Source: Chitinophagaceae bacterium | Lineage (GTDB): Bacteria; Bacteroidota; Bacteroidia; Chitinophagales; Chitinophagaceae | Direction of reading: 5' to 3' | Length of the DNA: 64,000 nt | Assembly: GCA_051954695.1 (NCBI GenBank) | Contig: JBQCHL010000025.1 | Location: 30,852 to 94,851 of the forward strand | In this document: in pieces, positions 1 through 15,425 of the stretch | Numbering within the stretch: position 1 is the stretch's first letter | How the letters are laid out: each line of letters starts with the position of its first letter | The notes under the pieces: model-generated | What the model saw: only the letters and a program-made list of their open reading frames with translations | Database searches by the model: none | Told to the model about the DNA's origin: nothing | Translations under genes and position numbers: made by a program

Positions 1-1176
1 TACTCCCGGCCGGTTTTGCGGCTTTCTGATTTTAAGGGGAAAGCGCTGCTTATTAGTGTCTGGGCACATAATTGTCTTCCTTGTATAAAAGCGTTTCCTC
101 TTCTGGACAGTATGCAGGAAAAATTTAAAGACCGTTTGCAGATAATTCTGCTTAATCATGAGACAGCAGATTCAACAAGAAGGTTTTTCTTGCGAAAGAA
201 GAAATTGCCTCAGCCAAAAGTCGTTCCCATGATAACGGGTGAAACTGTATTGTCAAAAAAACTGAATACGTTAGGTGAACTTTGGCTTGACTCTGCAAGA
301 GTTTTCCACTTTGGATCTGAAATTGCAAATATCACAGAAGAAAATATAAACAAGTTTCTTGCAGGCATCCCGCTTACATTCAAAAAGCGTGTTAAGCTGG
401 CGGAGTTTGATACTTCCATTCCATTGATAACAGAAGGCGGTGGGCGGTGGATAGACAGTATCGGCTCTTATGCTTATTTTTTTCATCATCCGTTTGAGAT
501 CCCTCAGTTGAACAAAACAGAGCCGGATATAGGTACCCCCGCTAATGAACTTCGATTTACAAATATTTCTGTTATGGAACTGTATCGTCTGGCCTTCAGT
601 GAAAAGCACAAATATAATTTCACACAGGCTACTATAGAAGTACGTGTAAAGGATTCCAGTTTGTTTTTTCCTCCGAAAGGAGATAGCGAAAGCCGGGTAA
701 ACTGGTATAATGAGCATCTTTATACCTACGATTCGCGGGTGCCTTTGCCATTTGCAAACAGGATTTATCAGTTGATGCAGCAAAGCCTGCCTTTTCAGTT
801 TGGACCAAAAGCTGAAGTACAGTTACTGGAAAGAAATTGTTGGGTGCTGGAAGCATTAGACAGCACGAAATTTATTTCAAAAAAAGGGTCTCCTTACAAA
901 AAAGCCGGCTTAAGGATTGATGAATCGGATTCGGTTTCACAATTCCGGCACTGGCCATCCATGAGTATTTTCACGACTATTAAAACTTATTGTCAAGAAT
1001 TCTCATCTCAACCTTTGATTAACGGCTTACATTACTCTGGTCCGATGAATTTCTCTATGCATTTGGGGATAGTAGTTTCTGGGAAAATGGAAAGATTTCA
1101 GGAGGCATTGAAAGAGAATGGCCTGATACTCCGGCAGCAAAAAATGAAAATGCCTGTGCTGGTAATACAGGATTAA
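1..1176 (+). CDS. Thioredoxin-fold (TlpA/redoxin, CLPC) protein with DUF3738-like C-terminal region; 5'-truncated by window edge
   Basis: Frame open from base 1 (YSRPVLRLSDFKGKALLISVWAHNCLPC); WAxxCxxC motif; colinear with paralog 12219-13511; C-terminus ALKENGL..K.K.PVLVI resembles DUF3738/TIGR03435 end. Confidence 0.8.
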   Translation, partial: YSRPVLRLSDFKGKALLISVWAHNCLPCIKAFPLLDSMQEKFKDRLQIILLNHETADSTRRFFLRKKKLPQPKVVPMITGETVLSKKLNTLGELWLDSARVFHFGSEIANITEENINKFLAGIPLTFKKRVKLAEFDTSIPLITEGGGRWIDSIGSYAYFFHHPFEIPQLNKTEPDIGTPANELRFTNISVMELYRLAFSEKHKYNFTQATIEVRVKDSSLFFPPKGDSESRVNWYNEHLYTYDSRVPLPFANRIYQLMQQSLPFQFGPKAEVQLLERNCWVLEALDSTKFISKKGSPYKKAGLRIDESDSVSQFRHWPSMSIFTTIKTYCQEFSSQPLINGLHYSGPMNFSMHLGIVVSGKMERFQEALKENGLILRQQKMKMPVLVIQD

Positions 1177-1182
1177 TGGCAA

Positions 1183-1219
1183 GACTAGAGTGACGGCTAT
1201 CATTAGGGTCACTCTAGTC
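1183..1219. terminator. 12-bp inverted repeat between convergent genes (probable bidirectional terminator)
   Basis: GACTAGAGTGAC (1183-1194) / GTCACTCTAGTC (1208-1219); overlaps peptide stop codon; no strong U-tract. Confidence 0.55.
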
Positions 1220-1537
1220 ATAAGTCCAGGGAGTTTCATGCGTTCCGATCCGATCACTATGCCAATCGTCATTTATTACACCAGTACCAGGATCGGTTTG
1301 ATTCTTTAAGCTCCAAATAGGATATCCACGGCGGCAGTCTGGCCCATCTATAACATGACAGGTGCCACTCGTAAAATCATTTCGCCCCCCATAATCCAGG
1401 TAGGCTCCTGTTCCCGTTAATGCATTGTATTCAAACCAATACAGGAACTCAGTTGAGTCCACCTTTTTCTGGCTTGTAAAAGCGCTTAGGGATATAGCCA
1501 TAATCAAGGCTACTATTCCCCAAAAATACTTTCTCAT
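1214..1537 (-). CDS. Small secreted two-Cys peptide/protein 1 (DUF6520-like), signal peptide + CX7C
   Basis: MRKY + hydrophobic stretch + SLSAFT; C-HVIDGPD-C; about half identical to paralog 13568-13876 by manual alignment. Confidence 0.8.
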   Translation of the reverse strand: MRKYFWGIVALIMAISLSAFTSQKKVDSTEFLYWFEYNALTGTGAYLDYGGRNDFTSGTCHVIDGPDCRRGYPIWSLKNQTDPGTGVINDDWHSDRIGTHETPWTYD

Positions 1538-1563
1538 ACATTTGATTTTATTTGATTAAATGC

Positions 1564-1634
1564 TGCCTGCTTTTTTATACAGGGTTCGGCTGATCCTGTG
1601 CTTACTAATCCCGGTCTACAAGTAGCATTGCAAT
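1564..1634 (-). ncRNA. Candidate structured cis-regulatory RNA, copy 1 (pseudoknot/switch-like)
   Basis: Minus-strand AUUGCAAU..ACAGG-AUCAGCCGAAC-CCUGU-AUAAAAAA-GCAGGCA ending 27 nt before peptide ATG; near-identical core at 13906-13942. Confidence 0.55.
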
Positions 1635-1671
1635 AACAGACTGTACTCTAAAATTGTATTAGATACTTCGC

Positions 1672-1705
1672 AAAAAGGTTCGAGGAATAAAAAATACGTT
1701 TGCAA
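1672..1705 (-). promoter_or_regulatory. Motif shared with region upstream of MauE (putative common promoter/operator)
   Basis: AAAAAGGTTCG..AAAAAATACGTTTGCAA vs AAAAAGGTTCG..AAAAAATAAGTTCGCGA at 14436-14470. Confidence 0.3.
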
Positions 1706-1979
1706 GAAGGTTGTTTAAACAGAGATAGCCAGTCAGGGAGCCTTCTTTTTTCTTCACACGAACGTTCTATTGATCGATGTCAGCTATATTCTGTAAATAG
1801 ATTCTTTTAATGGAAGGCCTTCAATATCGATTCGCGCCTCAAACGCTATATTAGTTTGCAGGAAATACTGACCCTGCTTAGGCAACTCATTTTACCATAA
1901 ATAATTTAATTACAATGTATTACATTAAAATAAGGAAATATAAATAAGAAAAATGTTTTTACATACGTAGTTAACTACA

Positions 1980-1987
1980 TATATTTG
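1980..1987 (+). promoter_or_regulatory. Bacteroidota -7 promoter box for GNAT gene
   Basis: TATATTTG matches TAnnTTTG 15 nt before ATG 2003. Confidence 0.4.
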
Positions 1988-2002
1988 GAGTAAATAGTCT
2001 CT

Positions 2003-2515
2003 ATGAGTCTTCCGATCATCATTAAACCACTCAACAATACCCATTGCCAGGAGATCATCGATCTCATTCTGCCCATTCAGCAAATCGAGTTCAGCGTGCC
2101 TGTAAACCTGGAAAGTCAACCGGACCTGCTCGACATTGAAACAAATTATGATGCTACCGGCGGCAAATTCTGGGGAGCATTCAATGGTGAAGAACTGGTG
2201 GGCACCATCGCTTTGATCGGCATTGGCCATCAGGCTGGTGCTATCCGGAAAATGTTTGTAAAAAAGGAATGGCGGGGCAAAGAGTTGGGTATTGCCGGCT
2301 ATTTGCTGGAAACGCTTATCAGCTACTGCAAAGCCAATAATATAACCGATCTTCTTCTTGGTACAGTAGATCTGTTAAAAGCCGCTCACCGGTTTTATGA
2401 AAAGAAAGGATTTGATCGTATTGACCAGGAAGACCTTCCCTCCTATTTTCCAAGAATGAAGGCAGATAATATGTTTTATCATTTACACCTTCATCCTTCT
2501 GAAGGACTGATTTAA
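2003..2515 (+). CDS. GNAT family N-acetyltransferase
   Basis: IRKMFVKKEWRGKELGIA acetyl-CoA motif A; AHRFYEKKGF motif B. Confidence 0.9.
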   Translation: MSLPIIIKPLNNTHCQEIIDLILPIQQIEFSVPVNLESQPDLLDIETNYDATGGKFWGAFNGEELVGTIALIGIGHQAGAIRKMFVKKEWRGKELGIAGYLLETLISYCKANNITDLLLGTVDLLKAAHRFYEKKGFDRIDQEDLPSYFPRMKADNMFYHLHLHPSEGLI

Positions 2516-2574
2516 AGATGAGATTCATCGTTTAACATTAACATCAGATAATTAATTTTAGCAAAAACCACGAT

Positions 2575-3063
2575 ATGGGTGTAATTGAAGAAGTTGGTAT
2601 TCTGGCTCTCGCAACAAGGCTTCAGCGACTGAGCGATATGATGCGAAAGGATGGATTGCAGATCTATAAAGATCATGGAATAGCATTTGAACCTAAATGG
2701 TTCCCTGTTATTTATACGCTTCATCATAAACCTTTGCTGGGCGTGGTGGAGATAGCAACAGAGATTGGTTATACTCATCCATCGACCATTAGTTTACTGA
2801 AAGAACTGGAAAAGGAAAAACTCATCCGTTCAAAAAAAGATAAGACCGATGAGAGAAAACGGCTGATACAATTGACGGGCAAAGGACAGGATTTAATTGA
2901 TCAAATGAAACCGGTCTGGGAACTGATAAGTAAGGCTATTGCCGAACTAACGGATACAAAGAATAACCTGATGCAGGCGGTTATTGAAGTGGAGGAGCAA
3001 TTGAAACAGAAAAGTATGGCTGCCCGGGCAGCGGGTATATATCTGGACATTCAAAAGAAGTAA
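2575..3063 (+). CDS. MarR family transcriptional regulator
   Basis: wHTH EIATEIGYTHPSTISLLKELEKEKLI and D.R...I.LT.KG wing. Confidence 0.9.
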   Translation: MGVIEEVGILALATRLQRLSDMMRKDGLQIYKDHGIAFEPKWFPVIYTLHHKPLLGVVEIATEIGYTHPSTISLLKELEKEKLIRSKKDKTDERKRLIQLTGKGQDLIDQMKPVWELISKAIAELTDTKNNLMQAVIEVEEQLKQKSMAARAAGIYLDIQKK

Positions 3064-3080
3064 CCTGTTTATTATTTAAG

Positions 3081-3130
3081 CAATTAACCTGAGCCAGTTT
3101 TAATCTGTTCAATTAACTCCAGCCACTTTC
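3081..3130. repeat. Imperfect direct repeat, 29-bp period, between convergent genes
   Basis: CAATTAAC-CTG-AGCCA-G-TTT (3081) and CAATTAAC-TCC-AGCCA-C-TTT (3110). Confidence 0.5.
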
Positions 3131-3134
3131 TATG

Positions 3135-3839
3135 TTATTTTAAAACGAATGCCGCATTTACTAATGTGGTAATCTTTATCTTCTCAAACTCAATCTTAGG
3201 AAGGCCCTGCTTGCCTTGTGCAATAGTGCTTATTCCCCTTATGCGTATGCCTGCAGCAACGCCCTGAAGCTGACTTTGAATGCCGGCTTCTTTTTCAGTG
3301 ATATGGATGGCATTGCCTACTGTCTGGCCAATTGATCGGGTCAGAGCAACAGCTTTTCTTTTCGCTGCTTCAATGGCTTTGGAATAACAATCGCTTTTGA
3401 TACCCTCTATATCTGTATGATCTACGCGATCCACAGAAACATTTGAAATATCAAGGTTTTCCAATTCTATAAATACACTACTGGCTAATGCAGCGGTCGA
3501 TACTTCCAGTATATATTCTTTCGATTTAAGAATATCCCTTTTCTTCAGGAAATAAACGCGGTAATTACTCAACATATCGCTCGCTTGCAGATATTTTTCA
3601 GTGTTGATACCCAGCGATTGAAGAGCCATAACCATTTTGGTCTCTGTTTCTTCCAGAGGCACCCTGTCTTTGGTATCTTTCTCGGAGAGTAGTATCCGGA
3701 TAAATATCTGGTTTGGAGTAACAAGGGAATCAGCAGTTCCTTGCACTTCGATAAAAGGTTGATCGATAAAATTTTTCGTTTGGGAATAGCCGGATAGCCC
3801 AACCAGGATCAGGATGATTACAGTAATGATCTTCTTCAT
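3135..3839 (-). CDS. SIMPL domain (DUF541/YggE-like) exported protein
   Basis: Signal peptide; IEVQGTAD..VTPN; AIEAAKRKAVALTRSIG..VG.AI.I.E pattern. Confidence 0.85.
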   Translation of the reverse strand: MKKIITVIILILVGLSGYSQTKNFIDQPFIEVQGTADSLVTPNQIFIRILLSEKDTKDRVPLEETETKMVMALQSLGINTEKYLQASDMLSNYRVYFLKKRDILKSKEYILEVSTAALASSVFIELENLDISNVSVDRVDHTDIEGIKSDCYSKAIEAAKRKAVALTRSIGQTVGNAIHITEKEAGIQSQLQGVAAGIRIRGISTIAQGKQGLPKIEFEKIKITTLVNAAFVLK

Positions 3840-4116
3840 ACTTCTATTTTAGAAACAGATGCGCAACCGTTATTTATTACATATCCGGCTTTATACGCAA
3901 TATTGCAAAGAGCTCATAGCTGGGCCAAAAAACATTTTATACCGGTGTAAACACCATGGGCACATTTACAAAAACATTTAAATTCATTGTACAGAATGTA
4001 AAAGCACAATTATCGAAGTCATTAGAAAACGAGAAAATTATCTCATAGCCTGGTTAATCGTTTACGAAAAATGCATTAAATTTAAATAACATCCTTCACC
4101 TCAACCTTATCCAACT

Positions 4117-5058
4117 ATGATACCAGATATCTTTCTCAATAACAATAAACGTGTCGACTGGCAGTCGCAGCCCGCAAAACCCAAGGACCCTATTCTTCCC
4201 GGCAGCACTCATCATATATCCCGGCACAAAACCTTTACAGCAGAGCATAAAAACTACCAGCAAAAATTTATCGATTTCAGTTACAGGATATTCCGCTTCA
4301 TTCGTACAGGCAAGCTTACTATTAAAGAAAAGAACCGCCCGGGAAGTATTAGACTTGAGGCTATGTTATCAGGACAAATAACCCAGCAGGTTCAGGAAGG
4401 TGAGCAATGGGTATTGCGTGCAGGAGAATACAAGCTAAATGATCAGCCCGACCTGATCGCCTTATTTAAAAAAGATAGTGCCTGCAGTTATTTCATGGCT
4501 CATTACTCCAAAGAATTACTGGAGAATTTAGGAATTCCGCATCTTGTTCAGGCAACAACGCCAAAACCACTCAGTGAGGAAATGAAAAACCTGATACATA
4601 ATATCCTCCGTCATCCATACAAGGATTCTATCAGGCAATTGTATTATGACAAATGCATCCAGGAATTGTTGCTGCTTCATCTCACCCACCAGGGGCGGCC
4701 ACTGCCTGATCAGCTTAATGATGAAGATATTGCCGCGATCTATTCGGCAGATCATTTATTGCAGCGTGACCTGCACTGGCCGGGCGACCAGTATACACTG
4801 GCCAAACAAGCCGGTATAAGCGAACGGAAATTGAAAACCGGGTTTAAACATTTATTCGGCATGGCCGTTTTTGAACGGCTTACCTGGCATCGAATGCAAT
4901 ATGCTCAGCTATTGCTGAAAACAAGTGATCGCTCAATAGAAGAAATCGCACTGGAAGTGGGTTATGCTACCCGCAACAGTTTTATCACAGCTTTCCGCCA
5001 GCAATTCAACCTTCCTCCACGGAAATGGCGGAATAAGCATTTATCCGACCTAACATAG
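4117..5058 (+). CDS. AraC family regulator (PchR/YbtA-like C-terminal domain)
   Basis: LAKQAGISERKLKTGFKHLFG and SIEEIALEVGY..RNSFITAFRQQF double HTH. Confidence 0.85.
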   Translation: MIPDIFLNNNKRVDWQSQPAKPKDPILPGSTHHISRHKTFTAEHKNYQQKFIDFSYRIFRFIRTGKLTIKEKNRPGSIRLEAMLSGQITQQVQEGEQWVLRAGEYKLNDQPDLIALFKKDSACSYFMAHYSKELLENLGIPHLVQATTPKPLSEEMKNLIHNILRHPYKDSIRQLYYDKCIQELLLLHLTHQGRPLPDQLNDEDIAAIYSADHLLQRDLHWPGDQYTLAKQAGISERKLKTGFKHLFGMAVFERLTWHRMQYAQLLLKTSDRSIEEIALEVGYATRNSFITAFRQQFNLPPRKWRNKHLSDLT

Positions 5059-5118
5059 ACCCTGTTCCTCATAGGGCTGGCATTGCAGAAGACTGAGTTG
5101 ACCTCAGTAGTATTTTAC

Positions 5119-5409
5119 TTATTTGGAAAGATTGTTTTTCTGCTTATCATCAGCAGCCAACTGGTTCAGAATGATATTGGTTACAATCTGTGGGTCTATA
5201 TCTACCCGTTTAGCAAATGACCTGATCTGTTTGATAGTTAACTCTTCAGGCTTGTACAACTTACGTACATACCTGCTATGATTAAGCCCAAGTAGCCTGG
5301 CTATGTATGTAGGATAAAGTTTTTCAATATCCTTCATACGCTCAACTGAACCATCCAAAAACATAGACCTCACTGGTGCAAGCTTGGGATCTTTTTCTTC
5401 CTGAGACAT
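5119..5409 (-). CDS. Small hypothetical protein, possible Xre-like HTH
   Basis: 96 aa, helical, TYIARLLGLNHSRYVRKL..PEELTIKQI pattern; divergent from ECF sigma. Confidence 0.6.
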   Translation of the reverse strand: MSQEEKDPKLAPVRSMFLDGSVERMKDIEKLYPTYIARLLGLNHSRYVRKLYKPEELTIKQIRSFAKRVDIDPQIVTNIILNQLAADDKQKNNLSK

Positions 5410-5580
5410 AGTAGTTTCTATAGAAAGAAAAGGTAAAAGCCTGGCCTCGAATCGTCTGTGAAAACTAACATTAAGTATGCAAAAACTTACTAAATGTATT
5501 TTTTCATTAGTTTTACCTGCCCTGAAGTCAATACCAGCTTTCTCATGTTATCCGGTCTATGCCAATGTTAATTATCAAAC

Positions 5581-6132
5581 TTGTCGCTCCAAAAACCTCA
5601 TACAAACCTGGGCCAGGGTTCTAAACCTGGAGAAGAAGTGGCTTATGATCATCTGTTTCGCGAGTATTTCCCTGCGCTTTGTTATTTCGCACGAAGGTTC
5701 TTAAAACAGAGGTATGATCCGGAAGACCTGGTCATGGACTGCTTTGCCAAGCTTTGGGAAAAAAGGGTCTCTTTGCAGCATCCTGAAACCGTTAAGACCT
5801 TTCTATATACAACGGTACGCAATGCCTGCATAGATCTGCTGCGAAAAAAGAATATTCCTGTCATTCCTGTTGCGTCACACGAAGAATCTCTACATGATGA
5901 GGAAGCCAACTTCATTAGCTTTCTGATAGAAGCAGAAGTATTCCGCGAAATATTCTCAGCAGCCGAGCACCTGCCTCAGCAAATAAAAAAAGTGTTCCAG
6001 CTCTATTTTGTGGAAGGAAAAAATGAGCGGGAGATCAGCGAGGAACTCAAGACCTCTTATCATACCGTGCGAAACCAACGACAGCGAGCAGTGGCGCTCT
6101 TAAAAGAAAAACTACAGATCCCTAAAAAATAA
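5581..6132 (+). CDS. ECF RNA polymerase sigma-70 factor
   Basis: LFREYFPALCYFA, EDLVMDCFAKLW, FLYTTVRNACIDLLR (region 2); LP...KKVFQL...EG....EISEEL (region 4); TTG start, in-frame stop just upstream. Confidence 0.92.
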   Translation: MSLQKPHTNLGQGSKPGEEVAYDHLFREYFPALCYFARRFLKQRYDPEDLVMDCFAKLWEKRVSLQHPETVKTFLYTTVRNACIDLLRKKNIPVIPVASHEESLHDEEANFISFLIEAEVFREIFSAAEHLPQQIKKVFQLYFVEGKNEREISEELKTSYHTVRNQRQRAVALLKEKLQIPKK

Positions 6133-6203
6133 AAATCAAACGGCTAGTCAACATTTACACTCCTCCCGTATTTTAATACAAGGCAATTAGCTACCTTACC
6201 AAC

Positions 6204-7400
6204 ATGGAAAAAGGAAACGAACCAGATAATATTAAAAAGGCTTACCGGACAGCCTATTTGATTGCTGGGTTTCTTAAGGAATCACTGACAGAACCAGAGA
6301 AGCAGGAATTAAATGCCTGGGTCAATGAAAACGAGCATAACAAAAAGCTTTTTGCTGAACTGACCAACCAGGAAAAGCTGCAGGAAAAGCTGAAAGAATA
6401 TAATCAGGCAGGTACAGAGCAATACCTGGAGGAAAGCAAACAGGAGTTGAGCTTCAATAATCGCAGGAAAGTAAGACGGTTATGGGCATATGGTGTAGCT
6501 GCTTCCTTTATCGCATTTGTAATCATAATCTGGGTAGCAAAACCATTCACTGAAAAGCAAGGGCCTATTGTCCGCGAGGAAACAGATACACTTATCCATC
6601 AAAGCGGGCAATTGGAAAAGGAAAAGGTGGTACTGGATATGGGAAAGGGGAAGAAAATCGTGCTTGGTGAAACTAAAACTGATTCGGTCATTGATAAAGG
6701 ACTACTTATCAAAGAAGGAAAAGAGCTGGTTTATCAAACCGAATACAGCGAAAATGAGTTTCATACACTGACTGTACCACATAAAAGTTTTTATCATTTA
6801 CGATTACCCGACGGAACAAAAGTGTATTTGAATGCGTCATCATCTATCCGTTTCCCAACCCATTTTCCTGAAAAAGAAAGACGGGTATATATAAGCGGTG
6901 AAGCCTATTTTGAAGTAGCGCATAATTCTGCTCAGCCATTCCGCGTGGAAGCTGCCATTAAAGATAGAGTTCCCATGGTCGTGGAAGCTGTTGGTACTGC
7001 TTTTAATGTTAATACCTACACGGATGAGCCTTTCCCTTCAGCCACACTGGTAGAAGGAAAAATAAATGTATCATTGTCTGATAAAGAAATGGTGCGGCTT
7101 GTTCCCAACCAGCAGGCGCGTGTAACCAGTAAAGGGCTTAAAGTAGGGGAGGGAAAAGTAGATGTGATCACAGCCTGGACAAAAAATGAATTCAATTTTG
7201 ATGATACACCTTTAAGCGAAGTGCTGCGGCAACTTGCCCGCTGGTATAATGTAGAAATTATCCAAAACGTGCCCGACCAGTCGTTTAAAGCTGGCCCCTT
7301 TTCACGAAATCAACCCCTGGAATACTGGTTGAAGATCCTTTCCAAAACAGAAGAATTCACTTACCGCATCGACGGACGTCGAGTTACCATTACTAAGTAG
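6204..7400 (+). CDS. fecR: FecR family anti-sigma/sensor protein
   Basis: Single TM; LRLPDGTKVYLNASSSIRFP, RRVYISGEAYFEVAHN, VGTAFNV, LSEVLRQLARWYNV. Confidence 0.92.
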   Translation: MEKGNEPDNIKKAYRTAYLIAGFLKESLTEPEKQELNAWVNENEHNKKLFAELTNQEKLQEKLKEYNQAGTEQYLEESKQELSFNNRRKVRRLWAYGVAASFIAFVIIIWVAKPFTEKQGPIVREETDTLIHQSGQLEKEKVVLDMGKGKKIVLGETKTDSVIDKGLLIKEGKELVYQTEYSENEFHTLTVPHKSFYHLRLPDGTKVYLNASSSIRFPTHFPEKERRVYISGEAYFEVAHNSAQPFRVEAAIKDRVPMVVEAVGTAFNVNTYTDEPFPSATLVEGKINVSLSDKEMVRLVPNQQARVTSKGLKVGEGKVDVITAWTKNEFNFDDTPLSEVLRQLARWYNVEIIQNVPDQSFKAGPFSRNQPLEYWLKILSKTEEFTYRIDGRRVTITK

Positions 7401-7414
7401 GAACGAAACAAATC

Positions 7415-7470
7415 AAGGTCAGAAACGGCCATTCATTGCAGGCGATCATCCGCCCTGCCTGGCCAGCCTT
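7415..7470 (+). other. Extended imperfect stem-loop in FecR-SusC intergenic region
   Basis: AAGG..GGCCA..GCAGGCG-ATCATC-CGCCCTGC-C-TGGCC..CCTT nested complementarity; no U-tract. Confidence 0.45.
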
Positions 7471-7521
7471 TGCCCTTTTCTCGGACCGAATCGTATTGTG
7501 TAACTCAAACTGTTCCAAACT

Positions 7522-10500
7522 ATGCAACTGCTTAAGTATGGTCGCGGCCTTATTCTCCGCTGCGGCTTCCTGATCATTTTGTCTATCCCGTTTAATCTTC
7601 GGGGTTTTACTCAAACAGTCTCTCTCTCTTTTGAAAATGCTGCGTTAGAAAAAGTATTGAAAGAACTGGAAAAACAGGTGCCTCAACGATTTGTTTATAC
7701 ACGGGCAATGATGGACGAATCAAAACCGGTTTCTGTTCATTTAAACAAAGTAACATTAGATTCTGCGCTGCAGAAATGTTTCGACAATCAACCTTTAGTT
7801 TATTCGAAAGACCAGCGTTTTATTATTTTAAAAAGGATTTTATCTCCTTCTGAAAAACAAGCACCTGCCATTGTACTAACAGGCAGGATAACCGATGAGA
7901 ACACCCAACCCGCACAAGGCGTAACAGTAAGATCAAAACTAAGCGGACAATCCTCTTCTTCCAATAAAAACGGGGAATTCAGCTTACCGGTTGAACCATC
8001 AGGCGATGTACTGTATATAAGTGGGGCTGAAATACAATCACAGGAGATCCCATTGCAAGGCCAACGCTATATCGCGATAAGCGTAACCCACAAAATCGGA
8101 AGCCTTGATGAAACTGTTGTTATTGGCTATGGTAAAACCACCCGCCGGATGAACACCGGAAGCGTTGGTAAAATCAACCAGGCTACTATTGCGCAACAAC
8201 CGGTCGGCAATGCATTGAATGCATTGCAGGGCCGTGTAGCCGGGCTTGAAATAACACAAACCAACGGTCTTCCGGGTTCTTCGGTGAGAGTACAGGTACG
8301 TGGCAGGAATTCTATTGCACAGGGCTCTCAGCCTCTGTTTATTATTGATGGCGTTCCGCTTGCAGCAGGTAAGGAAGTGCTGAATCAACTGATCTCTGCT
8401 TATGGCAACCCAGACACTCCCCTGGAAGTCTCGGGCGGAGGGGGCATTAGCCCGCTTATAAGCCTGAATCCAGCAGATATTGAAAGTATCGAAGTGTTGA
8501 AAGACGCTGATGCTACTGCTATCTATGGAAGCCGCGGTGCCAATGGGGTAATTCTCATTACAACCCGCAAAGGGCAGAGCGGAAAACTACAAACCAATTT
8601 CTCTATGAAAAGCGGCTGGAGCCGTATTACGCGGAGTATGGATTTCCTGAATACTCCTCAATACCTTGCTATGCGGCATGAAGGGTTTGCACAGGATAAT
8701 GCCATTCCCACCGTTGCAACTGCCCCTGATCTGTTGTTGTGGGATACCACAAGGTATACTGATTTTAAAAAGCTGTTGATTGGTGGTACAGCCCTTTTCA
8801 ATGATGTGCAGACTTCACTATCGGGCGGTAATAACTTAACACAATTCCTGTTTGGAATGGCCTATCACAGGGAAACCACTGTATTCCCCGGAGATAAGTC
8901 CCTGCAACGGGCCTCTGCAAATCTGAACCTGCAGCATCGCTCTGCAGATAGCCGGTTCACCGCTAATATGTCTGTCAACTACGCGTTCACTAAAAACAAT
9001 AATGCGGTTCAGGATCTCACTTCAAGCATTAGCCTACCTCCTAATACGCCCCCGCTTCTCAATGCGGATGGCAAACTCAACTGGCAGGAGGGCGGTGCAG
9101 TATTTAACAACCCTCTTTCTTACACAGCATCGGAGTATAATGCGAACACTGATAATCTGATCAGTCATCTTCAGTTAGGGTATAAAATTTTACCGGGCTT
9201 TTCCCTTAGAGTGAATGCCGGCTATAACCTTACTGTTGCCAAAGAAGAACGTATAATACCGATTGTTGCTCAAAACCCTACTAATAATCCACGGGGCGTA
9301 TCAAGCTTTGCCAGCCGTATGCTTAGAAGCTGGATTATAGAGCCACAAATGGAATACAGCAATCAATTTGCCTGGGGAAGGATTACAGCGCTCGTTGGAG
9401 GCACTTTACAATTAAGCAGTAATGATCAGGCTTCACAACAAGCTTCTGGATTTACCAGTGATGCCTTGCTTCGGTCAATTAATCAGGCTACCATGCTTAG
9501 CGCAAATAATAGCTATACACAATATCGTTACTCAGCAATATTCGGTCGTATTCAATACAACTGGCAGGATGAATACCTCCTAAGCTTTACTGGCAGGCGA
9601 GATGGTTCTTCCCGCTTTGGGCCGGACAATCGGTTTGCACAATTCGGTTCAGTTGGTGCTGCATGGATTTTTTCCAACACATTTAAAAACAAACTTCCCA
9701 TGCTTAGTTTTGGGAAGCTTCGTGCCAGCTATGGTAGCACAGGTAATGACCAAATAACCGATTATCAATACTTACCAACCTGGAGCGGCGCTTTCAATCC
9801 TTATCAGGGTGTTGCAGGGTTAATACCTACACGCTTATTTAATCCTAACCATCGTTGGGAGGTAAACCGGAAACTGGAAGCAGCGATCGAGCTTGGCCTG
9901 TTTAAAGACCGGTTGTTTATCTCGGCTGCGTATTTCCGTAACCGGAGTAGCAATCAACTGGTAGAATATCCATTGCCCAGCCAGACAGGGTTTTTCAGCG
10001 TTACAGAAAACCTTCAGGCTTTGGTACAAAACACAGGAGTTGAAATTGAATTACGCTCTACCAATATAAGTGCCGGAGATTTTAGCTGGCAGACCTATGG
10101 TAATATCACTATTCCCCGTAATAAGCTGGTTTCCTTTCCGGGCTTTGCCTATTCAAGCTATGCACGCAACTATGCGGTCGGTGAGCCGTTGAACCTGATC
10201 AAACGCTACCGATATCTTGGCGTTGATCCTTCAACTGGTCTTTATGAATTTGAAGATGTAAATAAAGATGGAGTGTTTTCTTCAAAAGATGATTTCCAGG
10301 TATTGGGTAAGCTGGATCCTGATTTTTACGGTGGCCTGGGAAATGATTTTCAGTATAAAGGGTTTTCCTGTACGATATTCTTTGAATTCCGCCATCAAAT
10401 TGGGATTAATTACTTATCAGACCTGGCTTCCAAAATACCCGGCCGCAATTTAAATCAACCGGTGAGCGTATTGGAGCGGTGGCAGCAACCTGGTGATATT

Positions 10501-10803
10501 GCGCCTACACAAAGATTTACTGCGATCAATGCAGCGCCTGTGGCTATAGCAGCCTCCCGAATTGCTACTTCGAACGCTATGTATAGTGACGCCTCTTTCC
10601 TGCGCCTGAAAAACATTGCAGTTTCCTATACGCTGCCAGCGAGCTGGCAAAAAAAGATAGGCTGCAGTAATGCACGTATCTATACCCTTGCTCAAAATGT
10701 GTTGACCATCACCGGCTATCGCGGTGCTGATCCCGAAACACAGCGCATTTATAAACTTCCTCCATTGAAAACACTGGTGATCGGTGTGGACTTAACCTTT
10801 TAA
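7522..10803 (+). CDS. SusC/RagA family TonB-dependent outer-membrane transporter with N-terminal signalling (STN-like) domain
   Basis: LDETVVIGYG, ALQGRVAG, IRGRNS-like plug, DIESIEVLKDADATAIYGSRGANGVILITT, DGSSRFG, C-terminal F. Confidence 0.95.
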   Translation: MQLLKYGRGLILRCGFLIILSIPFNLRGFTQTVSLSFENAALEKVLKELEKQVPQRFVYTRAMMDESKPVSVHLNKVTLDSALQKCFDNQPLVYSKDQRFIILKRILSPSEKQAPAIVLTGRITDENTQPAQGVTVRSKLSGQSSSSNKNGEFSLPVEPSGDVLYISGAEIQSQEIPLQGQRYIAISVTHKIGSLDETVVIGYGKTTRRMNTGSVGKINQATIAQQPVGNALNALQGRVAGLEITQTNGLPGSSVRVQVRGRNSIAQGSQPLFIIDGVPLAAGKEVLNQLISAYGNPDTPLEVSGGGGISPLISLNPADIESIEVLKDADATAIYGSRGANGVILITTRKGQSGKLQTNFSMKSGWSRITRSMDFLNTPQYLAMRHEGFAQDNAIPTVATAPDLLLWDTTRYTDFKKLLIGGTALFNDVQTSLSGGNNLTQFLFGMAYHRETTVFPGDKSLQRASANLNLQHRSADSRFTANMSVNYAFTKNNNAVQDLTSSISLPPNTPPLLNADGKLNWQEGGAVFNNPLSYTASEYNANTDNLISHLQLGYKILPGFSLRVNAGYNLTVAKEERIIPIVAQNPTNNPRGVSSFASRMLRSWIIEPQMEYSNQFAWGRITALVGGTLQLSSNDQASQQASGFTSDALLRSINQATMLSANNSYTQYRYSAIFGRIQYNWQDEYLLSFTGRRDGSSRFGPDNRFAQFGSVGAAWIFSNTFKNKLPMLSFGKLRASYGSTGNDQITDYQYLPTWSGAFNPYQGVAGLIPTRLFNPNHRWEVNRKLEAAIELGLFKDRLFISAAYFRNRSSNQLVEYPLPSQTGFFSVTENLQALVQNTGVEIELRSTNISAGDFSWQTYGNITIPRNKLVSFPGFAYSSYARNYAVGEPLNLIKRYRYLGVDPSTGLYEFEDVNKDGVFSSKDDFQVLGKLDPDFYGGLGNDFQYKGFSCTIFFEFRHQIGINYLSDLASKIPGRNLNQPVSVLERWQQPGDIAPTQRFTAINAAPVAIAASRIATSNAMYSDASFLRLKNIAVSYTLPASWQKKIGCSNARIYTLAQNVLTITGYRGADPETQRIYKLPPLKTLVIGVDLTF

Positions 10804-10814
10804 AATTTACTATT

Positions 10815-12197
10815 ATGTTTATCTTTTTATACAGATCATATTCTGCATTGTTATTATGTTCTCTACTCCTGTTTTCTTCCTGTCAGAAGTTTACTGAAGT
10901 ACCTGCACCTCAAAATCAGATTTTGAGTGATGCTGTGTTCTCCAGTGATGCAACAGCCAATTCTGCAGTAGCCGGATTATACAGTCAGTTCATGCGTCCC
11001 CATATGTATTTTGCAAATTGCGGTCTATCAATTTATCCTGCATTAAGTGCTGATGAATTATACAATACAGCCCCGAGTGTAGATTTCGACGCAGTCAGGA
11101 TTAATGATATTTCATCCGGCCAGATCGATGTATTGTCATGGTTGTGGAATCCGGGATTCGAGGCTATTTATCAATGTAATGCTTTGTTGGAAGGGTTTAG
11201 TAAGCCCAATGGACTTACGCCTTCTGTTCAGCAGCAACTACGTGGTGAAGCCTTATTTGTAAGAGCATTTTCATATTTCTACCTGGTTAATCTTTTTGGC
11301 GACCTGCCCCTGCCATTGTCAACCGACTACCACATGAATGCAGTATTGCCCAGAACATCAGTTACCAAAGTATACAAACAGATAATAGATGATCTGCAGA
11401 CTGCGGTGGAAAGCCTACCGGTACAACAGATCAATTCAACCAGGACCCGGCCAAACAAGTGGGCTGCACAGACACTTTTGGCAAGGGTCTATTTATACCT
11501 CGGCCGTTGGGGGGATGCAGTTACTACAGCTTCTTCCATTATTAATAATAATGATTTTGTTTTAGGAACAAATCTTGAATCAGTATTCCTGGCAGGGAGT
11601 AAGGAAACTATTTGGCAGTTATCTCCTTCCGGAACCACAGCCTATACATCATTAGGGGTTCAGTTCATTCCCTCCAATGCGAGCATAAATCCTTCTTTCA
11701 GTACAACAGAAGACTTATGGCAATCATTTGAAACAGGTGATAAACGGGCTAATGCCTGGTTAAAAACAGTGGTAATAGGTGGAGAAACCTATCACTATCC
11801 TTTTAAATATAAACAAAGAGCAGGAACGGCCAGTACGGAATATCATATTGTATTCCGTCTCGCAGAGCCATATCTTATCCGTGCAGAAGCATTAGCCATG
11901 CTGCAACAACCTGAACCGGCATTGGATGATCTGAATAGGATACATACGCGCGCTGGATTAGCTCCCCTGGTTGCCCTTACTGATGAATCCTTATTACGCG
12001 CTATAGAAAAAGAGCGTTTTGTTGAATTATTTACCGAATGGGGACATCGTTGGTTTGATCTTAAACGAACAGGTCGTTCCGATGCTGTTCTTGGACCATT
12101 GAAAGGTACAAGCTGGCAGTCAACTGATGTATTATACCCTGTACCGCTGGACGAGTTGCAACGGAATGTATACCTACAGCAAAACCCTGGCTATTAA
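10815..12197 (+). CDS. SusD/RagB family nutrient-binding lipoprotein
   Basis: Lipobox FSSC; GEALFVRAFSYFYLVNLFGDLP; RLAEPYLIRAEA; ERFVELFTEWGHRWFDLKR; QNPGY end. Confidence 0.95.
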   Translation: MFIFLYRSYSALLLCSLLLFSSCQKFTEVPAPQNQILSDAVFSSDATANSAVAGLYSQFMRPHMYFANCGLSIYPALSADELYNTAPSVDFDAVRINDISSGQIDVLSWLWNPGFEAIYQCNALLEGFSKPNGLTPSVQQQLRGEALFVRAFSYFYLVNLFGDLPLPLSTDYHMNAVLPRTSVTKVYKQIIDDLQTAVESLPVQQINSTRTRPNKWAAQTLLARVYLYLGRWGDAVTTASSIINNNDFVLGTNLESVFLAGSKETIWQLSPSGTTAYTSLGVQFIPSNASINPSFSTTEDLWQSFETGDKRANAWLKTVVIGGETYHYPFKYKQRAGTASTEYHIVFRLAEPYLIRAEALAMLQQPEPALDDLNRIHTRAGLAPLVALTDESLLRAIEKERFVELFTEWGHRWFDLKRTGRSDAVLGPLKGTSWQSTDVLYPVPLDELQRNVYLQQNPGY

Positions 12198-12218
12198 ATC
12201 ATTTTTTAAACCACAGAT

Positions 12219-13511
12219 ATGTATTTAGTGTTTAAACGTGCAGTTCTTTTATTGATTGCTTCAATTGGGTTTATAACCGCAAAATCTCAAAGTATTTCTG
12301 TTGGCGAAACCTGGCCAAATATCCAGTTTAAAGAAGTATTAAACTACCATAAGCCGACTTTGGAGTTTTCAGATTTCCCTGGAAAAGTCTTCATAATTGA
12401 TTTATGGGCCCATGGCTGCAAGCCATGCGTAGAAGCTTTTCCTCACCTTGATAGTTTGCAGGCACAATTTAAAGACCAGTTACAGATTATTATGATCAAC
12501 CCTGAAGGAAAGGATTCAACAATCAGGTATTTTAAAAGAAAGAATAAAATACATGTGCCTAAAAATATCCCGATGGTTACTGGAGAAAAGGCATTATTTG
12601 ATCGATTGAAGACTTTGGGCTATCTCTGGCTGGATTCCTCATGGACGCTCCGGTATGCTGGAGGAAATGATCATACTACAGCAGTTAATATCCAAAAATT
12701 TTTGTCCAATATTCCTTTAACTTTTAAACAGAATCGCATAGTTGAGGACCTAAATATTGACGTGCCTCTAATTTCCGAAGGGGAGGGTCGTTGGCTGGAT
12801 AGTGTAAATTTTTATTCATACCTGTTTCATCATGATTTTCACATGCCCTACCTACGCAGTTTTATACCCGGAAAAAATGGCCCTCCCAACAGGCTTTGTC
12901 TGCCGAACATACGGGTATTAAGTTTATACCGTGCCGCCTTTAATAATGGTTCACTTGAAACTTACACTTCGATGCCTATAGATATTCATGTAAAAGATTC
13001 AAGCTTGTTTTTTCCGCCTACCGGCGAAAAGTTTGATGAAAACTGGGCAATAAATCATCAGTATACCTATGATGTCAAAGTACCGATGTCCAGGGCCAGT
13101 GATATTTATCCGATCATGCAACGCGATCTGGCCCTTCACTTCGGTCTCAAAGCTGAAGTCAAGCTACTTGAAAAAGACTGTTGGGTGTTGGAACCCTTAG
13201 ACCGCCGGTTGTTTGTTTCTACAAGCGGAAAAGCATCTCCCACAACCGGAAAGCCGCAAGTCGATTCTATTAATCGTTTCAGTCATTGGCCATCAGATCG
13301 GCTTTGGTTTACACTAAAACAATACTTCACGCTTTTCTCAGCCCTTCCATTAGTTAACCGGCTATCTTATTCGGGACCAGTGAATTTTGAGATTCATCAG
13401 AATGTTTTGATCTCTGGCAATATGGATTTGTTCAAAGAAGCACTAAAAAAGAATGGTATATCTATTAGGAAGACTAAAGCAAAGATTCCTGTTCTTGTAA
13501 TTACGGATTAA
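12219..13511 (+). CDS. Exported thioredoxin-fold (TlpA/redoxin, CKPC) protein with DUF3738-like C-terminal region
   Basis: Signal peptide; DLWAHGCKPC; colinear paralog of 1-1176. Confidence 0.85.
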   Translation: MYLVFKRAVLLLIASIGFITAKSQSISVGETWPNIQFKEVLNYHKPTLEFSDFPGKVFIIDLWAHGCKPCVEAFPHLDSLQAQFKDQLQIIMINPEGKDSTIRYFKRKNKIHVPKNIPMVTGEKALFDRLKTLGYLWLDSSWTLRYAGGNDHTTAVNIQKFLSNIPLTFKQNRIVEDLNIDVPLISEGEGRWLDSVNFYSYLFHHDFHMPYLRSFIPGKNGPPNRLCLPNIRVLSLYRAAFNNGSLETYTSMPIDIHVKDSSLFFPPTGEKFDENWAINHQYTYDVKVPMSRASDIYPIMQRDLALHFGLKAEVKLLEKDCWVLEPLDRRLFVSTSGKASPTTGKPQVDSINRFSHWPSDRLWFTLKQYFTLFSALPLVNRLSYSGPVNFEIHQNVLISGNMDLFKEALKKNGISIRKTKAKIPVLVITD

Positions 13512-13515
13512 TTAA

Positions 13516-13545
13516 GAACGGCCATCGATTTAACGATGGCCGTTC
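13516..13545. terminator. Bidirectional terminator-like hairpin between convergent genes
   Basis: GAACGGCCATCG / CGATGGCCGTTC 12-bp stem, 6-nt loop, followed by ATTTT. Confidence 0.7.
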
Positions 13546-13567
13546 ATTTTCAAAGCGATCTGACCAT

Positions 13568-13876
13568 TCAAGGTTTTCTGATCTGGTCATCATGGAAATT
13601 GTCATCAATCACCCCTTGTTCCGGATCGCCATTCACCAAATCCTCCAAAGAATATCCTCGACGGCAATCATCTCCCTCCATTTGATTACAGATGGCTGTA
13701 ACAAATAGGCTCCGCTCCCCATAATCCAAATAGGTACCTGCCCCTGATGATATATTATACTCAAACCAATACAACGGTGCAGACTTTACAGCTTTGTCAG
13801 ATGATTTAGCACTTGTAAACGCACTCAAAGACACCGCTGCAATCACAGCGAATAATCCCAATAAATACTTTCTCAT
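13568..13876 (-). CDS. Small secreted two-Cys peptide/protein 2 (DUF6520-like), signal peptide + CX7C
   Basis: MRKY..SLSAFT; LYWFEYN; YLDYG; C-NQMEGDD-CRRGY; paralog of 1214-1537. Confidence 0.8.
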   Translation of the reverse strand: MRKYLLGLFAVIAAVSLSAFTSAKSSDKAVKSAPLYWFEYNISSGAGTYLDYGERSLFVTAICNQMEGDDCRRGYSLEDLVNGDPEQGVIDDNFHDDQIRKP

Positions 13877-13905
13877 AACTTCTGATTTTAAAATGAAAAA
13901 ACATT

Positions 13906-13981
13906 TGCCTACTTTTTTATACAGGTATTCGGCTATTCCTGCCGGCCAGGTTTGCGCTTGCCTGACCAGGTTCTATTGCAA
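13906..13981 (-). ncRNA. Candidate structured cis-regulatory RNA, copy 2 (overlaps MauE 3' end)
   Basis: UUGCAAUA, 9-bp hairpin CUGGUCAGG/CCUGGCCGG, GCAGG-AAUAGCCGAAUA-CCUGU-AUAAAAAA-GUAGGCA ending 30 nt before peptide ATG. Confidence 0.55.
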
Positions 13982-14408
13982 CAGTTCTTTTATATTTTCT
14001 TTCCATATACCAACCAAAAAACGCCAGAAAGGTCATTATGATATTCAACACAAGATGCTGCTGCCAGCTAAGCACTTCTATTACACCGCCACAGCCACAA
14101 GGCAGTTTCTTCGCAAATAGTAACATACCACCGATATAACCTGTAAAACAAAAAAGCAGGATGCCGGAGAACAATAATGCCTTCTCACGAAACCAGAGAA
14201 TCAACAAACCAACAGCCAGTAACAACTCAATTGCTGGTATACCCCAGGCCAGTTGCCCGCTGAATGGCCGCAACCAGGGCGAAGACCTTAATGCTATATG
14301 GAACCGGTGCAATTGCATTGCTTTACTCAATGCTGTATAAACGAACAACGCAATAAGTACAGCAGCAATAATGGAAACAAGGAGGTGAATAGAGTATTTT
14401 CGCTTCAT
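13917..14408 (-). CDS. MauE/DoxX family redox-associated membrane protein
   Basis: Several TM helices; LFVYTALSK, ELLLAVGLL, LPCGCGG (CxC) and SWQQHL..N motifs; alternative start 14423. Confidence 0.88.
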   Translation of the reverse strand: MKRKYSIHLLVSIIAAVLIALFVYTALSKAMQLHRFHIALRSSPWLRPFSGQLAWGIPAIELLLAVGLLILWFREKALLFSGILLFCFTGYIGGMLLFAKKLPCGCGGVIEVLSWQQHLVLNIIMTFLAFFGWYMERKYKRTVAIEPGQASANLAGRNSRIPV

Positions 14409-14454
14409 AGAATAAAGGTTCACCTGCGATCCAAGAAAAAGGTTCGCCTATAAA

Positions 14455-14514
14455 AAAAATAAGTTCGCGAACAGGCCACTTTCTTTTAAGTGTACCATCC
14501 GCGAACTTATTTTT
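14455..14514 (-). terminator. Rho-independent terminator downstream of SDR gene
   Basis: Perfect 15-bp IR AAAAATAAGTTCGCG / CGCGAACTTATTTTT with 30-nt spacer; 8-T run on minus strand. Confidence 0.65.
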
Positions 14515-14569
14515 CTTTCCTACGAATGAATTTTACGCTGAAGTTTTGTATACCCAGCCAAAGAAAAGA

Positions 14570-15403
14570 TCATACCGCAAGCCCTGCCGCCGAAACCAAA
14601 TCCCTCACCCCCTCCATTCTTCTTTCTACCGGCCTCGTTCTCACTGCAGCCAAATCACTCACATTCTGCCCAAGGAATAAAAACAATGGTGGATCTTCCT
14701 GTTCTCCTACCAACAACAACGCCATCGCTGCTTTCTCCAGTTCCACCACACTGCCACCTCCCTGCAGCGGCAGGTTCTGTATTTCCTTAATGGGCCTGTA
14801 ATCCGCAATCTTTCTTTTTGGAACAACCAGCAAACCCGGAGCTGTAAAACCTGAACGGAAGTAGGCTGGTACCACCACCGTTACATCTATTCCGAAAGGG
14901 CGTACTTCTGCCGCCAGCGATTCCGAAAAACCCAACACAGCCAATTCCGTAGCACGGTAAATGCCAAACCCTTCCTTTGCCCCGGTAAATCCTCCAATAG
15001 ATGATACATTGAAAATATGGCCACTTCCCTGCTCACGCAGAAAAGGCAATGCTCCACGGATCACATTCAATGTTCCAAACACATTCACATCAAAATTCCG
15101 GCGGGTCTCCGCATCCGACAACTCTTCTATACTTCCGGCAAGGCCGTATTTGGCACTATTAACAATCACATCAATTCCCCCAAAATGACGGACCGTATCA
15201 TATAACGCTCGCGCCACACTGTCTTCATCCAGCAAGTCAACCATCAACGGAAGAAAATCCGGTGACACCCCTCCTACTGATCTCTTCAACTCATCCAGGT
15301 CCCTCGAAGTGCCGGCAACTTTATACCCTTCCTGTATCAACCGCCTCATCAGCGTCAACCCTAACCCTTTTGAGGCCTCCGTAATAAACCAGATCTTTTT
15401 CAT
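14570..15403 (-). CDS. SDR family oxidoreductase with degenerate catalytic motifs (possibly inactive)
   Basis: SDR fold recognisable but TGxxxGxG->TEASKGLG, NNAG->NSAK, YxxxK->YRATE; start 15403 favoured because the -7 box lies at 15426-15433. Confidence 0.8.
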   Translation of the reverse strand: MKKIWFITEASKGLGLTLMRRLIQEGYKVAGTSRDLDELKRSVGGVSPDFLPLMVDLLDEDSVARALYDTVRHFGGIDVIVNSAKYGLAGSIEELSDAETRRNFDVNVFGTLNVIRGALPFLREQGSGHIFNVSSIGGFTGAKEGFGIYRATELAVLGFSESLAAEVRPFGIDVTVVVPAYFRSGFTAPGLLVVPKRKIADYRPIKEIQNLPLQGGGSVVELEKAAMALLLVGEQEDPPLFLFLGQNVSDLAAVRTRPVERRMEGVRDLVSAAGLAV

Positions 15404-15425
15404 ATCCCTTATTTTTTTCGTCAAA

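Follow-up and report, generated by a model that had tools for sequence, protein, structure and literature searches.

We analysed a stretch of 64,000 nucleotides (nt) from a Chitinophagaceae bacterium (GenBank assembly GCA_051954695.1, contig JBQCHL010000025.1, positions 30,852 to 94,851 of the forward strand), referred to below as the window. Its first 14,423 nt encode two thioredoxin-like proteins, two small exported cysteine-containing proteins (mini-proteins), a MauE-family protein and a SusC/SusD transporter pair (SusCD) together with sigma and anti-sigma factors. An earlier note, made from the letters of this DNA alone, had proposed that these genes form one system, in which an exported disulfide-closed peptide is sensed or re-imported through SusCD. 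The list of open reading frames (ORFs) and the family scans place the genes that it named at the positions it gave. Judged by the recurrence of the arrangement, a conserved Bacteroidota system almost certainly exists, and the mini-protein encoded in it may be what its transporter recognises.

Two paralogous modules in the window

The larger module occupies positions 4117–14423. Here, the genes of an extracytoplasmic function (ECF) sigma factor (5581..6132, + strand; Sigma70_r2 at 55.8 bits, with r4_2 and Sigma70_ECF also matched), a FecR-type anti-sigma factor (6204..7400, +; FecR 42.9 bits, FecR_C 65.4 bits) and a SusC/RagA TonB-dependent transducer (7522..10803, +) make up a full Fec-type triad. 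The transducer carries an N-terminal STN domain, which scored 34.2 bits at a Pfam cut-off of 28.4, followed by CarbopepD_reg_2, Plug and barrel domains, and it matches TIGR04056 at 706 bits. Downstream lie the gene of a SusD-like lipoprotein (10815..12197, +), recognised in the family scan, and trx2 (12219..13511, +), which encodes a secreted TlpA/ResA-like thioredoxin of 430 amino acids (aa) with the motif WAHGCKPC and a C-terminal, DUF3738-related domain of ~280 aa.

Convergent with trx2, which closes the SusCD operon, is pep2 (13568..13876, −), the gene of a 102-aa exported mini-protein with a signal peptide, a C-x7-C loop and a divergent DUF6520 sequence. The two genes are separated by a hairpin with a stem of 12 base pairs (bp) (13516..13545; stems 13516-13527/13534-13545), seen in the sequence and on folding (−23.1 kcal/mol, z −6.15); none of 200 shuffled sequences folded as well. 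Upstream of pep2 on the same strand lies the gene of a MauE paralog (13917..14423, −; Pfam 91.6 bits against a cut-off of 27) with a CGC (CXC) motif in the context LPCGCGG. An AraC-family regulator gene (4117..5058, +; HTH_18 75.8 bits in Pfam) stands at the other end of the module.

The smaller module lies at positions 1–1537. It begins with trx1 (1..1176, +), a paralog of trx2 that is truncated at the window start and encodes a TlpA/ResA-like thioredoxin (WAHNCLPC) with a long C-terminal DUF3738-related domain; the full gene encodes 442 aa and starts 153 bases upstream of the window. Facing it is pep1 (1214..1537, −), whose product is a 107-aa exported mini-protein with a signal peptide ending in SAFT, a patch reading LYWFEYN and a C-x7-C loop. 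A hairpin that is read directly from the sequence (1183..1219; 12-bp stem, 1183-1194/1208-1219) stands between the two convergent genes and overlaps the pep1 stop codon, and it is likely to be a bidirectional terminator. The products of trx1 and trx2 are 48% identical over 391 aa, and those of pep1 and pep2 are 52% identical (E 1e-35). The identities and the hairpin coordinates confirm the proposal that there are two paralogous modules, each with a thioredoxin gene convergent with a peptide gene across a 12-bp hairpin. Going by these identities, we regard positions 1–1537 as a partial duplicate (thioredoxin and peptide) of the module at 4117–14423.

A third module was found on contig C34 of the same genome (C34:33475-37590), where an STN-bearing SusC gene is convergent with the gene of a 109-aa peptide, pep3 (C-x8-C), and a second MauE. 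On C34 the SusC gene abuts the convergent peptide gene directly, and a SusC without a SusD is unusual. A LytTR-like ORF of 126 aa is seen upstream of this MauE in the place of AraC.

The three peptide genes share a 35-nt motif, ACAGG..AGCCGAA..CCUGUA..AGUAGGC, located ~30 nt 5′ of each. In its strict form the motif occurs three times in the genome, once per peptide gene and nowhere else. The pep1 copy (1565..1599, −; ACAGG..AGCCGAA..CCTGTATAAAAAAGCAGGC) was found by motif search ~27 nt 5′ of the pep1 start, and the pep2 copy (13906..13942, −) overlaps the MauE stop codon. The pep3 leader (L006 1412-1448, −, on C34) and a copy from Empedobacter match the Rfam cis-regulatory family DUF805b (RF02914) at 45.5 and 41.5 bits, respectively, with a gathering score of 35.6. 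The pep2 leader reaches 21.6 bits (E 0.03), which is below the gathering score, and the pep1 leader gave no Rfam match at E ≤ 1. From these scores the leader motif appears to represent DUF805b, which the copies in the window resemble. The conserved C-terminal tail NRNSRxPV of many module MauE proteins is the translation of the motif; thus, the MauE stop codon lies inside the leader element.

The Pfam scan covered every ORF of at least 95 aa in window positions 1–15424. No carbohydrate-active enzyme (glycoside hydrolase, lyase, esterase or sulfatase) was found among these ORFs, and the view that this is not a polysaccharide locus despite its SusC and SusD holds. Apart from the genes of the modules and AraC, the ORFs of positions 1–14423 include members of the GNAT, MarR and SIMPL/DUF541 families and an orphan ORF of 96 aa (5119..5409, −) between the AraC and ECF sigma factor genes. 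The orphan has no family match and is kept in orthologous loci (95% and 50% identity). Upstream of the window, 5′ of trx1 and on the same strand, are sufB, sufC, sufD, sufS, sufE, a SufT-like gene and an Rrf2 regulator gene (C25:24349-32027). A second SusCD, which the earlier note had suggested looking for there, was not found; trx1, appended directly to this Fe-S assembly operon, may be co-regulated with it.

Recurrence of the arrangement in Bacteroidota

The three loci closest to that of the window (L001-L003) keep the whole arrangement. As they come from close relatives, they show synteny only. A distant locus from Chitinophagales (L005) has the same parts at 26-38% identity. A profile of the peptide matched 34 of the 201 genomes of this family (32 of 151 genera), and we inspected 1.5 kb to each side of each match. 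Nearly all of the matches have MauE directly upstream on the same strand, often with AraC upstream of MauE, and convergent with them is either a thioredoxin carrying the C-terminal domain (22-29% identity over the full length) or SusD.

The neighbourhood was also recovered from MauE. A second sample consisted of the 20 top-scoring stand-alone matches to MauE, with no other criterion applied: SusC/SusD lies within 9 kb in 15 of the 20 and a thioredoxin is present in about nine, and mostly a small signal-peptide ORF with cysteines follows MauE. For a third sample, we searched all reference genomes for the MauE motif PCxCGG-x6-W-x2-H, written as a degenerate DNA pattern, and obtained 120 loci from Flavobacteriia, Sphingobacteriia, Chitinophagia and Cytophagia, together with two chance matches in actinomycetes. 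Twenty of the motif-picked loci extend for 5.5 kb or more downstream of MauE, and each of these has a convergent SusC/SusD. The genome of the window has 18 SusC matches in 4.9 Mb, so a random stretch of 5.5 kb would meet a SusC only a few percent of the time. The neighbourhood was also sampled from the thioredoxin: 61 genomes were examined and 27 of them have a gene for the thioredoxin with its C-terminal domain; of 21 full-length genes, about 17 adjoin SusC/D and about 12 adjoin the MauE/peptide/leader module. The question had been raised whether peptide homologs usually occur without SusCD, MauE or thioredoxin; they are almost always found with MauE and SusCD. The arrangement recurs in four classes and in samples that were each picked by a single component, which supports a conserved functional unit, as had been claimed, rather than a chance neighbourhood.

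The regulator at the far end of the locus also belongs to the system; neither it nor the DUF805b-like leader had been remarked on in the earlier note. The AraC protein of 4117-5058 is the better match to 12 of the 14 AraC proteins from such loci, at 24-32% identity over 225-328 aa, and by these alignments it is homologous to the AraC regulators whose genes immediately precede MauE in other genera. SusD proteins of the system are of two types, and that of the window is 39-47% identical across classes (median 39% to system SusDs of other classes); with a single exception, paralogs in the same genome are at most 29% identical to the window SusD.

The number of modules shifts fast between relatives. 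The genome of the window has three MauE-domain genes (in the window, on C34 and a MauE-DoxX gene described below) and three peptide matches, compared with 12 MauE and 7 peptide matches in a genome of the same genus (G127); another genome has 13 MauE copies. In the MauE tree, clades mix Sphingobacteriia and Chitinophagia, with 8 changes of class label on 52 rows, which suggests either ancient paralogy or lateral transfer of whole modules.

Protein families, candidate mechanism and alternatives

MauE proteins from two phyla can replace DsbB in Escherichia coli, where their CXC motif is essential, and a Lys in the first transmembrane segment (TM1) and a Glu in the second (TM2) are conserved near the predicted quinone site (10.64898/2026.03.05.709764). 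In our alignment of module MauE proteins, K34 (TM1), C109 and C111 are invariant and E66 (TM2) is kept in at least 90% of the sequences. Since the module proteins retain the CXC motif, the Lys and the Glu, the assignment of MauE as the oxidant, made before these comparisons, agrees with the preprint experiments (10.64898/2026.03.05.709764) and is well founded. The MauE of the window is thus a putative DsbB-like thiol oxidase dedicated to the mini-protein. The third MauE of the genome, a 381-aa MauE-DoxX protein (C7:158662-159807), has the canonical motif NCGCFGDC and a weak match to the NCBIfam model BT_3928; it is probably a general DsbB substitute, distinct from the CxCGG paralogs of the modules. 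MauE-family matches are present in 198 of the 201 family genomes, many of them in long open frames of ~320-460 aa that resemble MauE-DoxX. A further domain of ~350 aa, without a Pfam match, is fused to MauE in Flavobacterium (L112 1287-2789); many Chitinophagaceae encode it separately, after MauE or after the peptide gene. The genome of the window lacks this domain.

The mini-proteins of the window score below the gathering cut-off of DUF6520 (PF20130; 25.4 bits), with 18.0 bits for pep2 and 14.2 bits for pep1. Of ten peptides tested from the same genomic position elsewhere, nine exceed it (27.5-57.6 bits), and by position and profile we read the peptides of the window as divergent DUF6520 members. 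We collected 114 unique small signal-peptide ORFs downstream of MauE. Their mature parts contain two cysteines in 66 cases, four in 45 and an odd number in two only. In the two-cysteine class the spacing is C-x6-8-C in 61 of 66, and the four-cysteine class follows the pattern C-x5-6-C-x6-8-C-x14-19-C. In the wider family the signal peptide, the cysteines and an aromatic patch (LYWF) alone are conserved; the rest of the mature sequence is hypervariable. The strict form of the leader motif precedes only 21 of the 114 genes. A search of the PDB with the peptide profile returned no related solved structure. The idea that the peptide is a metallophore gained no support, as the tail rich in D and H that pep1 and pep2 share is kept only in their close subfamily. 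We also considered a cluster for a ribosomally synthesised and post-translationally modified peptide and rejected it: no modifying enzyme beyond redox proteins is encoded in the window or in relatives, and the signal peptide is of the Sec type.

The first ~165 residues of trx2 have the TlpA/ResA-type thioredoxin fold. An exhaustive search with trx2 gave 8750 relatives, including 246 clusters at E<1e-30, nearly all of them ~430 aa long and aligned from end to end; W63, C67 and C70 are the only invariant residues in the family alignment. Neither trx1 nor trx2 matches DUF3738 (PF12543/TIGR03435) even at E 10. Among 113 full-length homologs, 45 do match the domain (lowest E 4.8e-8), so that the DUF3738 assignment in the earlier note fails for both window proteins directly and stands by transitivity through these homologs. 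An AlphaFold model of trx2 reached a predicted local distance difference test (pLDDT) value of 91 when built with the 113-sequence alignment and of 46 with close homologs alone. Its N-terminal domain superposes on structures of DsbE, ResA, TlpA and Etrx, which are extracytoplasmic reductases, and all matches in the fold search were thioredoxin-domain proteins. No solved relative of the C-terminal domain was found by the fold search of the model or by a profile search of the PDB. Among NCBIfam models at E ≤ 0.1, the N-terminal domain matches only those of TlpA, ResA, DsbE and TrxA, none of them near its cut-off, with no MauD model among them.

In the transporter operon, the gene after SusD is informative. 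Its product was classified for 77 loci with MauE and a convergent SusD: 22 have a thioredoxin type, 14 an S9 peptidase, three a Met-zincin and one an M16 peptidase; 23 have no gene in this place, and in 14 the product fell into none of these classes. Peptide-cleaving or disulfide-opening enzymes are thus seen where a polysaccharide locus would have glycosidases, which makes a disulfide-bonded peptide or protein the most likely cargo. Judged by gene content, the SusCD cargo is probably of this kind rather than a glycan, and the mini-protein is the only candidate disulfide-bonded peptide or protein that is encoded in every locus. A PDB search with the window SusC and SusD gave no pointer to a substrate among their nearest solved relatives; RagA is the second-best solved relative of SusC, and the BT_2264 structure was also matched. 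As trx2 lies in the ECF-controlled SusCD operon and is replaced by peptidases in other lineages, its substrate is more likely to be imported cargo than the nascent peptide, whose proofreading had been the initial proposal.

These observations can be assembled into a candidate mechanism. The system would consist of two convergent units, of which window positions 4117-14423 represent one copy. The first unit would comprise AraC, MauE and the mini-protein gene, with AraC relocated to the far end of the locus in this lineage, and would yield an exported DUF6520-type mini-protein of ~80 aa, in which the dedicated MauE oxidises the only C-x7-C pair to a disulfide. The second unit, consisting of the ECF sigma factor, FecR, the STN-bearing SusC, SusD and the thioredoxin-DUF3738 protein, would be a cell-surface-signalling transporter for a disulfide-bonded small protein or peptide, most likely the mini-protein itself. 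Binding of the ligand at SusCD would free the ECF sigma factor and induce the operon. The TlpA-like thioredoxin-DUF3738 protein would then open the imported cargo; where other lineages have an S9, M16 or Met-zincin peptidase, that enzyme would degrade the cargo instead. The module at window positions 1-1537 would use MauE and SusCD in trans. The genes, the paralogy and the conserved co-occurrence are shown here, and the oxidase activity of MauE has been shown by others (10.64898/2026.03.05.709764); that the mini-protein leaves the cell, that SusCD binds it and which way the thioredoxin reaction runs are inferred. That the MauE-locked mini-protein is the ligand or cargo of SusCD, processed after import by the thioredoxin or a peptidase, is the reading we favour, tentatively and at slightly less than an even chance.

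Several observations weigh against this reading. The mini-protein has a Sec-type signal peptide only, and no lipobox, type IX secretion system (T9SS) domain or dedicated exporter was seen for it; thus, no route across the outer membrane is visible. Module 1 (trx1/pep1) has no MauE or SusCD of its own, and the C34 module has neither SusD nor thioredoxin. Neither thioredoxin nor peptidase follows SusD in ~30% of loci. Elsewhere in the genome, an ECF-FecR-SusC-SusD locus (C18:221256-229950) with a SusD 47% and a SusC 43% identical to those of the window lacks MauE and the mini-protein, and its SusD gene is followed by genes for a 635-aa protein with a thioredoxin-like match and then an 814-aa protein. 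Loci such as this one indicate that such SusCD pairs can work without a locally encoded mini-protein. Finally, MauE and SusD show weak co-diversification: the MauE tree groups the SusD types to a modest degree, with 12 changes where the null gives 16.8 on average, and a count as low was reached in 4 of 500 shuffles.

A bolder form of the favoured reading takes DUF6520 proteins to be self-made, disulfide-locked extracellular ligands. They would be released, recognised by a cognate SusCD, signal through FecR and the ECF sigma factor and be imported for reduction or proteolysis, either as an autoinduction or ‘pherotype’ system or as a protein carrier for some cargo, with pairs diversifying by duplication. 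We consider this possible and, on balance, doubtful.

The visible lack of an outer-membrane route beyond the Sec signal peptide would be accounted for if the MauE-oxidised mini-protein stayed in the periplasm as an accessory of the transporter or of signalling, taking cargo from SusC or modulating FecR and the STN domain, and if the true cargo were a foreign peptide or protein. The client in the mau precedent, MauA, is periplasmic (10.64898/2026.03.05.709764), and tight convergent linkage to SusCD suits an accessory as well as a ligand. However, a hypervariable mature sequence in which the Cys loop alone is conserved would be unusual for a partner that docks on conserved machinery, and peptidases of the same operon would be expected to degrade a mini-protein kept in the periplasm. 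We regard a periplasmic client as unlikely.

The occurrence of ECF-FecR-SusCD-thioredoxin loci without MauE or peptide would fit a reading in which SusCD imported disulfide-rich peptides or proteins from the environment as nutrients, to be processed by the thioredoxin or peptidases, with MauE and the mini-protein forming a co-regulated, separate redox module. The distribution of the thioredoxin fits as well, since ~40% of the thioredoxin-DUF3738 genes have no MauE-peptide module within 1.5 kb. The three peptidase families found after SusD point in the same direction. Foreign cargo would nevertheless leave unexplained the near-constant adjacency of MauE-peptide and SusCD (20 of 20 and 15 of 20 in the two MauE-based samples) and their joint multiplication, with up to 13 MauE copies per genome, and we think it more unlikely still.

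Hypervariability behind a conserved signal peptide would also fit antagonism: the mini-protein would be a disulfide-stabilised, bacteriocin-like toxin, SusCD its receptor or a resistant allele of it, and the peptidase or thioredoxin a means of self-protection. The sharp difference in copy number within one genus (3 MauE here and 12 in the other genome) and the MauE clades that cross class boundaries are compatible with such a role, in which degrading or reducing enzymes could act as immunity. Yet genes for an exporter, for lysis or for an immunity-like small membrane protein are missing, the ECF/FecR/STN design is typical of uptake and not of immunity, and DUF6520 spans whole classes instead of varying by strain. 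A toxin is the least probable of these three functional alternatives, and we consider it improbable. That there is no functional link at all, the genes being chance neighbours or in plain synteny among close relatives as L001-L003 are, we dismiss as very improbable, since the arrangement recurs at 22-45% protein identity in four classes and in samples chosen by one component alone.

Comparison with known systems

Our literature searches found no paper that describes this system or that links MauE, DUF6520 or DUF3738 to SusCD. SusCD transporters define how Bacteroidota feed, yet for most of the pairs that lie outside polysaccharide loci no substrate is known. The module ties one class of SusCD to a gene-encoded mini-protein and to enzymes that process disulfides or peptides, in four classes and often in several copies per genome. 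The mini-protein is therefore a concrete and purifiable candidate ligand for an orphan class of transporters. It would supply the newly recognised MauE oxidases with a physiological client, and the module offers a first functional context for DUF6520, DUF3738 and the DUF805b RNA. If the mini-protein is indeed a self-made signal, this would be a new mode of communication between cells, or between cells and their environment, in a phylum that dominates environmental and gut communities.

The closest parallel to the first unit is the mau cluster for methylamine dehydrogenase of Paracoccus denitrificans (core mauE-mauD-mauA), in which a MauE with a CXC motif, a TlpA/redoxin-like CxxC thioredoxin and a small exported cysteine-containing client are likewise encoded together. 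The module differs from it in that the client would have one disulfide, not six, and no known cofactor, in that the thioredoxin carries a DUF3738-like domain and sits in a SusCD operon, and in having the motif CxCGG where CxCFG is common. A search for MauA (PF02975), which was run without a positive control, gave no match in the genome of the window.

Signalling of the Fec type is combined with a small secreted protein, the hemophore HasA, in the Has system. The Fec and Has systems share with the module the sigma/anti-sigma/STN-transducer triad, and Has also shares a linked gene for a small secreted protein. Here, in contrast, a SusC lidded by SusD serves as the transducer, and there is neither a type I secretion system nor any conserved haem- or metal-binding residue. 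Methanobactin operons encode a precursor peptide and the MbnIRT triad of sigma factor, anti-sigma factor and TonB-dependent transporter, and so resemble the module in linking a gene-encoded peptide to its own FecIRA-like uptake triad. They differ in that the module has no MbnBC modifying enzymes or exporter and in that its product is a predicted folded mini-protein of 80 aa rather than an 11-aa chelator.

For the second unit, uptake of proteins and peptides offers further parallels. Ferredoxin is taken up in Pectobacterium by the Fus system through the receptor FusA, with FusC as a periplasmic M16 protease, and RagAB and BT2261-4 are peptide-binding SusCD-like complexes. In Fus, RagAB and BT2261-4, as in relatives of the module that have an M16, S9 or Met-zincin gene, a TonB-dependent importer is followed by a peptidase. 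In the window, the processing gene encodes a thiol-disulfide oxidoreductase instead, and the putative cargo is the product of a neighbouring gene, not a molecule taken from a host. Polysaccharide utilisation loci, finally, have in common with the window a SusC/SusD pair placed under an ECF/anti-sigma pair. They differ from it in their carbohydrate-active enzymes, in whose place the window and its relatives have redox proteins and peptidases as the accessory genes.

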